This document shows positions 28,114 through 28,871 of a stretch of 53,420 bases of DNA, piece after piece. Both the position numbers and the translations under genes were made by a program. The stretch spans positions 496,001-549,420 of the forward strand of contig RSEE01000042.1 of the NCBI GenBank assembly GCA_003971905.1, given 5' to 3'. This DNA is from Moniliella sp. 'wahieum' (lineage: Eukaryota). The stretch's first letter is position 1. Each line of letters opens with the position of its first letter. The notes beneath the pieces were generated by a model. It had not been told where the DNA came from. It did not search any database and worked only from the letters and a program-made list of their open reading frames with translations.

Positions 28114-28871
28114 GCTCCCCAGCCGAAGGTCGTCTTTCCTCGCCTCCCCTCTCTTCGGAGCTGCGGTGCGAGTGGGAAGGTCCGCGTACGCCAGTGCCCT
28201 TCTGCCCTCTCGGCCCGCTGGAGGACCGCGTGGGCAGTGCGGCCTGTCTATTGGTAAGTCCTCTGCTGTCCATCTGCACAGGCATCAGCTGAAGCCCGGC
28301 GCGGCTCGCGAGAGCCGACCCGCGCGCACAAGAAAGGTTCTCTCGCCCACCTCTGCCGGTGCGCCCGTGGAGCATCCGAGTCGGCCCGGGAGGTTCCTCG
28401 GTGCTTGGTCTGTGTGTGCTGAGAACCCAGGTGGATGGAGGCCAGGTGGCCCACGGATTGGCTTTTCTCTCGCCCTGCGCTGTCAGCTCGGCTCCACGCC
28501 CCTTCCCAAGACGCCACTGAATATGGCCGAGGACAGGGCAGGTGTCGAGCTGTGCGAGGGGGGGGCGAGCGGGGGGCACGTCTGTCAGGGCACCCTCTCC
28601 TTTTGGAGAGCGCGAACGCCTGGCCTCTTCCATCTCTCAGCGCACGACAGGGATTGCGCCAAGGGCCCAACCGAACGGGTCCGGGTGTCCCCACGGTGCA
28701 GCGGCGGGGGGAGACTGGGATAGCGCGGGGATTGCTTTGTCGGACGGAGGGGCACAGGACAGGCTGTCGGGTACTGGATGCCCATTGGGCTTCAGTGCAA
28801 TAGACGACGCCCTCCGGGGGAACTCAACGCGTGACTACTCTCGTCCCCGCCTCTGTGCGGTGCTGGGGAGC
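28114..28871 (+). ncRNA. RPR1: Nuclear RNase P RNA, unusually long (about 758 nt from P1 to P1)
   Basis: P1 GCTCCCCAGC 28114-28123 pairs perfectly with GCTGGGGAGC 28862-28871. P2 GTCGTCT 28129-28135 pairs with AGACGAC 28802-28808. P3 CTCGC/GCGAG. CR-I GGGAAGGTCCGCG 28174-28186. P7 CCAGTGCCC 28191-28199 pairs with GGGTACTGG 28769-28777. P10/11 GTCTGTGT/GCACAGGAC. CR-II TGAGAA 28420-28425. P12 CCCAG 28426-28430 pairs with CTGGG 28715-28719. CR-IV AGTGCAAT 28794-28801. P19 CCC-TCCG-GGG. CR-V ACTCAACGCG(T)GACTA 28822-28837 pairs with CR-I to form P4. Confidence 0.92.

Follow-up and report, generated by a model that had tools for sequence, protein, structure and literature searches.

The 53,420-nucleotide (nt) stretch of contig RSEE01000042.1 from Moniliella sp. 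'wahieum' that was analysed here (the window) contains, at positions 28114–28871 of its plus strand, all five conserved regions of a nuclear ribonuclease P (RNase P) RNA in canonical order, as found by direct reading and by script. To judge from its sequence, this 758-nt element very probably encodes the RNA subunit of the organism's nuclear RNase P. A universal ribozyme, RNase P RNA usually measures 300–400 nt in eukaryotes; the candidate would be about twice as long, very probably through the huge growth of two of its arms. The conserved regions (CR-I to CR-V) are named, and their consensus forms given, as in the RNase P literature, and the candidate was compared with the consensus of the Rfam family RF00009 as printed by cmscan. 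The helices that can be drawn are P1, P2, P3, P4, P7, P8, P9, P10/11 and P12. The conserved regions and the features around the catalytic core are given below, with their counterparts in L009 and L012, two metagenomic relatives from other samples (bp, base pairs):

28114–28123, plus strand: P1, 5′ strand (GCUCCCCAGC), a perfect 10-bp complement of 28862–28871
28129–28135, plus strand: P2, 5′ strand (GUCGUCU), 7 bp with 28802–28808
28139–28172, plus strand: P3, a helix, an internal loop and a distal hairpin with a UUCG loop (local fold)
28174–28189, plus strand: CR-I with the 5′ strand of P4 (GGGAAGGUCCGCGUAC), a 16-mer identical in L009
28328–28337, plus strand: CR-II (ACAAGAAAGG), a 10-mer identical in L009 within an aligned block; Rfam consensus ACCAGAAAucg
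28716–28724, plus strand: CR-III (UGGGAUAGC), a 9-mer identical in L009 and L012
28780–28790, plus strand: small hairpin before CR-IV (GCCC-AUU-GGGC; local fold)
28794–28801, plus strand: CR-IV (AGUGCAAU)
28802–28808, plus strand: P2, 3′ strand (AGACGAC), directly 3′ of CR-IV
28810–28819, plus strand: hairpin between P2 and CR-V, P19 in a preliminary description of the locus (local fold); the Rfam consensus has a hairpin there
28822–28838, plus strand: CR-V with the 3′ strand of P4 (ACUCAACGCGUGACUAC), U28832 bulged, a 17-mer identical in L009 and L012
28847–28860, plus strand: small extra hairpin between P4 and P1 (CCGC/GCGG; local fold)
28862–28871, plus strand: P1, 3′ strand (GCUGGGGAGC), pairing with 28114–28123

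The preliminary description had read CR-I, CR-II, CR-IV and CR-V in canonical order, a P1 of 10/10 bp, complementary strands for P2, P3, P4, P7, P10/11 and P12 and the P19 hairpin, all in a span of about 760 nt. Each of these readings stands: the script located the four conserved regions, the P1 helix is perfect over 10 bp (28114–28123 with 28862–28871), the remaining strands and the hairpin were all located or recovered in folds, and every conserved region lies, together with the closing P1, within 758 nt. CR-III, which that description had left unplaced, is now set at 28716–28724, because the same 9-mer stands in both L009 and L012.

The 3′ end of the element provided a search pattern. Built from the candidate's CR-IV and CR-V words, the pattern AGTGCAAT N{8,38} AACNCAA N{3,7} GACTACTC has one match in the window, none in 100 shuffles of the window and 28 matches in 241 million metagenome records. 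At 24 of these 28 loci, an RF00009 match above the gathering score covers the pattern match itself. Three of the remaining four (L004, L009 and L012) score below the threshold, at 24.8, 22.2 and 21.9 bits, respectively, and the last (L001), which carries no other RNase P feature, is a chance match. The CR-IV/CR-V pattern is nearly diagnostic for RNase P RNA. Two scans of prokaryotic genomes for further relatives found none; one gave no matches and the other only L029, which lies in bacterial coding DNA, has none of the other conserved regions and was rejected as a chance match.

CR-I is the sole exact match in the window to the pattern GGGAAGGTCYGNG, a single match with one mismatch lying on the other strand at 12631, and it agrees with the Rfam consensus GGGAAGGUCUGAGA save at the positions that pair in P4. 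In the P4 pseudoknot, 28179–28187 pair with 28827–28836 over 9 bp with one bulged U. This helix reads CGCG/CGCG in the candidate and UGAG/UUCA in verified RNAs (22 loci), a difference of two compensatory double changes, and L027 has a further compensated variant, UGGG/UCCA. The succession of CR-IV, the P2 3′ strand, a hairpin and CR-V is that of RNase P RNA. Mononucleotide shuffles of the 5′ zones reached the observed helix length in 11 of 5,000 trials for P1, in 49 of 5,000 for P2 and in 177 of 5,000 for P7.

Although L009 was found through the 3′ motif alone, it also contains the candidate's 5′ block (28129–28192), with 75% identity over 72 nt (E-value (E) of 3e-8). It carries the same P2 strands and an identical proximal P3 (CUCGC/GCGAG); the distal P3 hairpin differs in sequence and still folds. 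Its CR-II block (window positions 28307–28337) is weak by itself (E of 0.084) yet holds the identical 10-mer. The conserved blocks of L009 follow the same order as those of the candidate at different spacings, and the distance from CR-I to CR-IV is 619 nt in the candidate, 1,173 nt in L009 and 122–348 nt in the 22 verified loci with a CR-I. The 1,335-nt contig of L009 cuts the gene off within P2 at one end and within the P1 3′ strand at the other, which makes the gene at least 1,335 nt long. In L012, at least 1,623 nt separate the start of the locus from the P1 3′-strand motif CUGGGGAGC, which the candidate has as well, and neither CR-II nor CR-I is reached. Both relatives, each on the minus strand, have the candidate's CR-V with its extra base letter for letter. 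The peripheral hairpins (distal P3, before CR-IV, between P2 and CR-V, and between P4 and P1) vary in sequence and length and fold wherever the sequence contains them: in L009 and L012, the hairpin before CR-IV is longer and closed by GCC/GGC, those between P2 and CR-V are different ones, and that between P4 and P1 measures about 45 nt.

An unconstrained fold of the specificity half (28191–28777) recovers P7, a side hairpin, an in-line helix, two hairpins, P10/11 and one long arm. The features of this half are as follows:

28191–28199, plus strand: proximal P7, 5′ strand (CCAGUGCCC), 9 bp with 28769–28777 in the unconstrained fold
28202–28237, plus strand: side hairpin on the extended P7 stem (unconstrained and local folds); longer in L009, at the same place
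28239–28271, plus strand: in-line extension of P7, 5′ strand, pairing with 28742–28767
28275–28301, plus strand: P8-like hairpin (folds), assigned by position only
28302–28317, plus strand: P9 hairpin with a GCGA tetraloop (GGCUC-GCGA-GAGCC; folds)
28319–28325, plus strand: P10/11, 5′ strand (CCCGCGC), 7/7 pairs with 28723–28729
28338–28715, plus strand: P12, an expanded rod-like arm of about 380 nt
28723–28729, plus strand: P10/11, 3′ strand (GCGCGGG)
28742–28767, plus strand: in-line extension of P7, 3′ strand, pairing with 28239–28271
28769–28777, plus strand: proximal P7, 3′ strand (GGGUACUGG), followed by a conserved AUGCC

One base separates the start of P7 from GCGUAC, and AUGCC follows its 3′ strand directly. 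As in an RNase P specificity domain, P10/11 brackets CR-II and CR-III, and P12 lies between these two.

To assess compensatory change, strands of the candidate and L009 were compared at positions fixed by the shared conserved words, and the pairs were compared by eye. About ten double substitutions with pairing kept fall in P7, P9 and P10/11. P7 is CCAGUGCCC/GGGUACUGG in the candidate and CCUUCUCUC/GAGAGAGG, with one bulge, in L009, which amounts to at least four double changes. P10/11 differs by four double changes, CCCGCGC/GCGCGGG corresponding to AUCGAUGC/GCAUCGAU (8/8 pairs) in L009; the k-mers that pair as well as this helix, true partner included, number 2 of 752 in the candidate and 2 of 1,328 in L009. 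The P9 stem covaries too, since L009 has different pairs on the same GCGA loop at the same place (GGGC-GCGA-GCCC, at the same distance from CR-II; two double changes). The closing helix of P12 was dropped as a case of covariation, because L009 offers two alternative partners for it.

The two enlarged arms have more structure than their composition predicts. The P12 arm has a minimum free energy of −222.7 kcal/mol, compared with −182.2 ± 5.6 kcal/mol in shuffles (z-score (z) of −7.21; 0 of 100 shuffles), and the P12 of L009 is also structured (z = −3.75). The arm measures about 380 nt in the candidate and in L009 and more than 1,000 nt in L012. An origin of P12 from a transposon or an inverted repeat was rejected, as the window holds no other copy of it and no long inverted repeat. 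Cofolding the two sides of the P7 extension gains −26.2 kcal/mol, compared with −14.1 ± 3.4 kcal/mol in shuffles (z = −3.56; 0 of 200). The equivalent sides in L009 are much longer and cofold with z = −6.26 (0 of 60 shuffles); singly, they have no excess structure (z = +0.12 and +0.58), as expected if they pair mutually. We take the in-line helix to be an extension of P7 because P9 and P10/11 are canonical beside CR-II and CR-III and the proximal P7 is canonical beside P4.

L012 (1–1904, minus strand) also carries a T-rich insertion of 535 nt at 872–1407 that has no excess structure (z = +0.55). The locus might be a giant gene that is still intact, a gene whose insertion is taken out, or a dead copy.

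Several observations weigh against the assignment of the element as an RNase P RNA gene or against the architecture proposed for it. An Rfam search at the gathering score returned nothing in the whole window, the candidate falling short of the 28 bits set for RF00009. In E-value mode, applied to 27700–29300, a single truncated RF00009 match appeared at 28704–28850 (147 nt, 9.7 bits, E of 3.2), in which only the part from CR-IV to CR-V is well aligned. The preliminary description had foreseen that covariance searches might miss or truncate the gene, which is what happened, RF00009 being silent at the gathering score and giving only a 3′-end fragment in E-value mode; it had also expected RF00009 matches at both ends, and only the 3′ end gave one. 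It further held that the lack of any RF00009 hit would refute the identification. At the gathering score there is indeed none, yet this yardstick is a poor one, because L009, L012 and L004 fall below the threshold as well. We read the shortfall of the candidate and its relatives as the model's penalty for very long insertions. When 16 verified RNase P RNAs were used to build a covariance model of the 5′ module, the candidate's 5′ end scored 8.7 bits (E of 1.6) with filters off, the third of nine weak matches in the window, and no match appeared with default filters; the automatic consensus structure of this model is poor. The 5′ half is therefore unrecognised by generic models, and its assignment rests on CR-I, the complementarities and L009.

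Other adverse points come from the element itself. CR-III fits the Rfam consensus cUUGGAAaa only loosely, and CR-V exceeds the cmscan-printed consensus by one base. The complementarity of P10/11 alone is not rare, being matched in 512 of 5,000 shuffles; this result is weak because the sequence is CG-rich, and P10/11 therefore rests on L009. The whole 758 nt folds with z = −4.58 and its reverse complement with z = −3.71 (20 shuffles each). Because the reverse strand also beats its shuffles, folding energy alone cannot choose between the strands, and the strand is set by the motifs. The covariation draws on only two relatives, with pairs assigned by hand from the anchors. Runs of four T at 28463 and 28601 lie inside the gene and could act as weak terminators for RNA polymerase III. 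Finally, an in-line extension of P7 would distance the specificity half from the catalytic half, an arrangement that fits the known geometry poorly if the stem does not bend back.

The open reading frames over the element, which the preliminary description took to be spurious, are present mechanically, with neither a Pfam match nor protein-level conservation. No Pfam family was found in five stop-to-stop frames over the candidate or its upstream flank, and none of the four start-to-stop frames over the candidate and its 3′ flank occurs in an exact look-up of a protein collection. When the four frames that overlap the RNA were compared by tblastn with L009, L012, L004, L003 and L008, E-values below 0.01 were obtained only for pieces of 15–17 amino acids from CR-IV/V. 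Long open frames on the element's own strand occur in the candidate (27965–28723, plus strand; 252 amino acids stop to stop), in L009 (426–1169, minus strand; 247 amino acids) and in L012 (641–1486, minus strand; 281 amino acids). A hidden protein in the long sense frames of L009 and L012 was rejected, as they agree at 42% of positions over 45 amino acids compared with 76% at the DNA level, and have no Pfam match. These frames are probably an effect of composition, though of a kind that gene callers could pick up.

The 758 nt contain six GTRNGY hexamers, at a window background of 4 per kb, and no YTRAY branch motif, compared with 3.5 per kb in the window; the absence of YTRAY argues against a spliceosomal intron. 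An intron starting from GTAAGT at 28254 was rejected for the same lack of a branch-point motif.

Downstream of the gene, runs of four T occur at 28911, 28942 and 28947. Runs of five T are found once in L009, in the hairpin before CR-V, and six times in L012; by sequence, they hint, and only hint, at a poor fit with transcription by RNA polymerase III in these two relatives. No tRNA-like element that would point to a promoter leader was found in the window, and upstream of the RNA gene neither a TATA-like nor a tRNA-like promoter element was seen. The 250 nt upstream are very GC-rich and contain two CACGTG boxes, at 27860–27865 and 28048–28053, and a (GCC)n run at about 27971–27987. In the 3′ flank, 13 nt past P1, GGUACUGACUUUGGAG at 28884–28899 contains a 5′ splice-like GUACUG that overlaps a branch-like UACUGAC; these words stand too near each other to make up an intron, and L012 has no counterpart downstream of its P1. 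It is succeeded at 28900–28928 by a perfect 11-bp hairpin, GCGCAAGGCCC-UUUUGUU-GGGCCUUGUGC, and then by T-rich sequence. This hairpin, which underlies a weak Rfam asX2 match, lies between the 3′ end of the RNA gene and a convergent NOP16. The latter gene, named by the preliminary description as the neighbour on the minus strand, is confirmed by Pfam PF09420 in two frames (E of 5e-20 and 2e-13).

A real RNase P RNA gene might still give a mature molecule, or pieces, of ordinary size if the expansions were cut out through an unusual intron or other processing, or if the RNA were fragmented. The huge variation in the size of the expansions (P12 ranges from about 380 nt, in the candidate and L009, to more than 1,000 nt, in L012) would suit such excision, as would the unstructured T-rich insertion of L012, the runs of five T inside the L009 and L012 genes and the GTAAGT at 28254. 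However, the 758 nt lack a YTRAY branch motif; the GTAAGT sits in an internal loop of a cofold-supported helix, and such hexamers would turn up by chance (4 per kb of the window); and the candidate's P12 is strongly structured (z of −7.2) and closed by a helix, like a retained expansion segment. Moreover, passages of PMC3001073 document that giant insertions are retained in Candida glabrata RPR1. We consider excision or fragmentation unlikely. It is less likely still, and quite improbable, that the locus is a decaying or redundant copy and that an RNase P RNA gene of standard length elsewhere in the genome does the work. The searches for an RNase P RNA gene in this genome covered this window, the RF00009 score is very low, and tandem duplicates of RNase P RNA genes do occur in L008, a fungal-looking contig; against decay, every conserved region is intact, compensatory change maintains the helices relative to L009, and the expanded architecture recurs in two relatives from other samples.

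Confusion with RNase MRP RNA (RF00030) is highly improbable. That RNA has P1–P4, CR-I, a CR-IV-like word and CR-V in common with RNase P RNA, and the candidate is like it in the layout of the catalytic domain. Unlike that RNA, which is not known to have CR-II or CR-III, the candidate carries both, flanked by P10/11; its CR-IV word is of the RNase P type, and of the 28 loci reached with the 3′ motif, 24 are RF00009 RNAs and none is an RF00030 RNA. No RF00030 match was found up to an E of 10, in a search that shows only the best family where clan matches overlap. The preference of the preliminary description for RNase P over RNase MRP is upheld by the presence of CR-II and CR-III and this lack of an RF00030 match. 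A chance resemblance in GC-rich intergenic or coding DNA, for which the long open frames on both strands and the lack of a significant Rfam match might be cited, is scarcely credible: the 3′ motif is absent from all 100 shuffles and nearly diagnostic in metagenomes, four conserved blocks recur in the same order in L009, and neither a Pfam match nor protein-level conservation was found.

As a nuclear RNase P RNA, the candidate resembles yeast RPR1, human H1 and the other members of RF00009 in the order of CR-I to CR-V, the P1-P2-P3-P4 core, the hairpin between P2 and CR-V, and the placement of P9, P10/11 and P12 around CR-II and CR-III. It departs from them in its length (758 nt compared with 218–485 nt in 19 full-length verified metagenome RNAs), in its P12 of about 380 nt, in the in-line P7 extension with a side hairpin, in the extra hairpin between P4 and P1, in a CR-V that is one base longer and in a P4 of CGCG/CGCG rather than UGAG/UUCA. 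Giant RNase P RNAs are already known in the C. glabrata group, where the insertions of C. glabrata RPR1 are located in the specificity domain. The candidate is like these in being enlarged by big insertions with the conserved core kept, and unlike them in that it comes from a fungal lineage unrelated to these ascomycete budding yeasts; we regard it as an independently expanded nuclear RNase P RNA. Independent expansion, as claimed by the preliminary description, is plausible, and the fungal-looking RNAs of L003 and L008 are about 480 nt long with an ordinary specificity domain. In passages of PMC3001073, the C. glabrata RNase P RNA is given as 1,149 nt, the largest described as of 2010, and passages of PMC3847288 give 1,368 nt for the RPR1 gene of Nakaseomyces delphensis. 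If they are intact genes, the candidate's relatives L009 (at least 1,335 nt) and L012 (at least 1,623 nt) match or exceed these sizes. A literature search found no report on nuclear RNase P RNA from smut fungi, although supplements may contain one.

Among further metagenome loci, L004 (1–1213), from another lineage, shows a split RF00009 signal, with a specificity-domain match at 340–428 (15.8 bits) and a 3′ match at 830–1130 (24.8 bits), and a CR-I-like GGCGAAGGUCUGAGG near 215 that pairs 7/7 with the CR-V helix strand. By sequence, it may be an RNase P RNA that measures about 950 nt and has an insert of about 600 nt behind P10/11. L008:650–1976, L003:935–1746 and L015:1–447 are fungal-looking RNase P RNAs of about 480 nt. 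In L008, two tandem copies lie on one strand; in both L003 and L008, the RNase P RNA gene has a tRNA gene as its neighbour, and in L015, a 5S rRNA gene begins 54 nt past the RNase P RNA.

In the structure that we propose, the catalytic half of the candidate would be ordinary, with P1, P2, P3, CR-IV and the P4 pseudoknot of CR-I and CR-V, and the substrate-reading half would retain its conserved core of P9 with a GNRA loop, P10/11, CR-II and CR-III. The growth would be confined to the P12 rod, at about 380 nt compared with the usual few dozen, and to P7, the stem joining both halves, which would carry an in-line extension of about 24 bp and a side hairpin. We infer that the RNA is made from 28114–28871, that all 758 nt are retained and that it would work as in yeast and human, where the P4 core and proteins cleave the 5′ leader of pre-tRNA and CR-II and CR-III read the tRNA elbow. 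Since the expansions would be directed away from the core, the enzyme would tolerate them.

A bolder proposal is that the candidate marks the small end of a fungal lineage with the largest RNase P RNA genes anywhere, that in this lineage a long in-line helix, rather than a P7 of 4–5 bp, connects the catalytic and substrate-reading halves, and that RNA polymerase III does not produce these RNAs, as the runs of five T in L009 and L012 suggest. We put this forward tentatively, as a possibility that we consider rather doubtful. If the long in-line helix does join the halves, they would be arranged, or held by proteins, differently from those of yeast and human RNase P.

As an RNase P RNA gene, the candidate would represent a second fungal lineage with giant RNase P RNAs, unrelated to the C. 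glabrata group. In such genomes, annotation with RF00009 at the gathering score silently misses the gene, and one might then conclude, wrongly, that a genome has no RNA-based RNase P; the CR-IV/CR-V word pattern offers a simple and specific finder of such outliers. If the P7 extension is real, it is a test of how widely the halves of the ribozyme can be parted while a tRNA is still measured.

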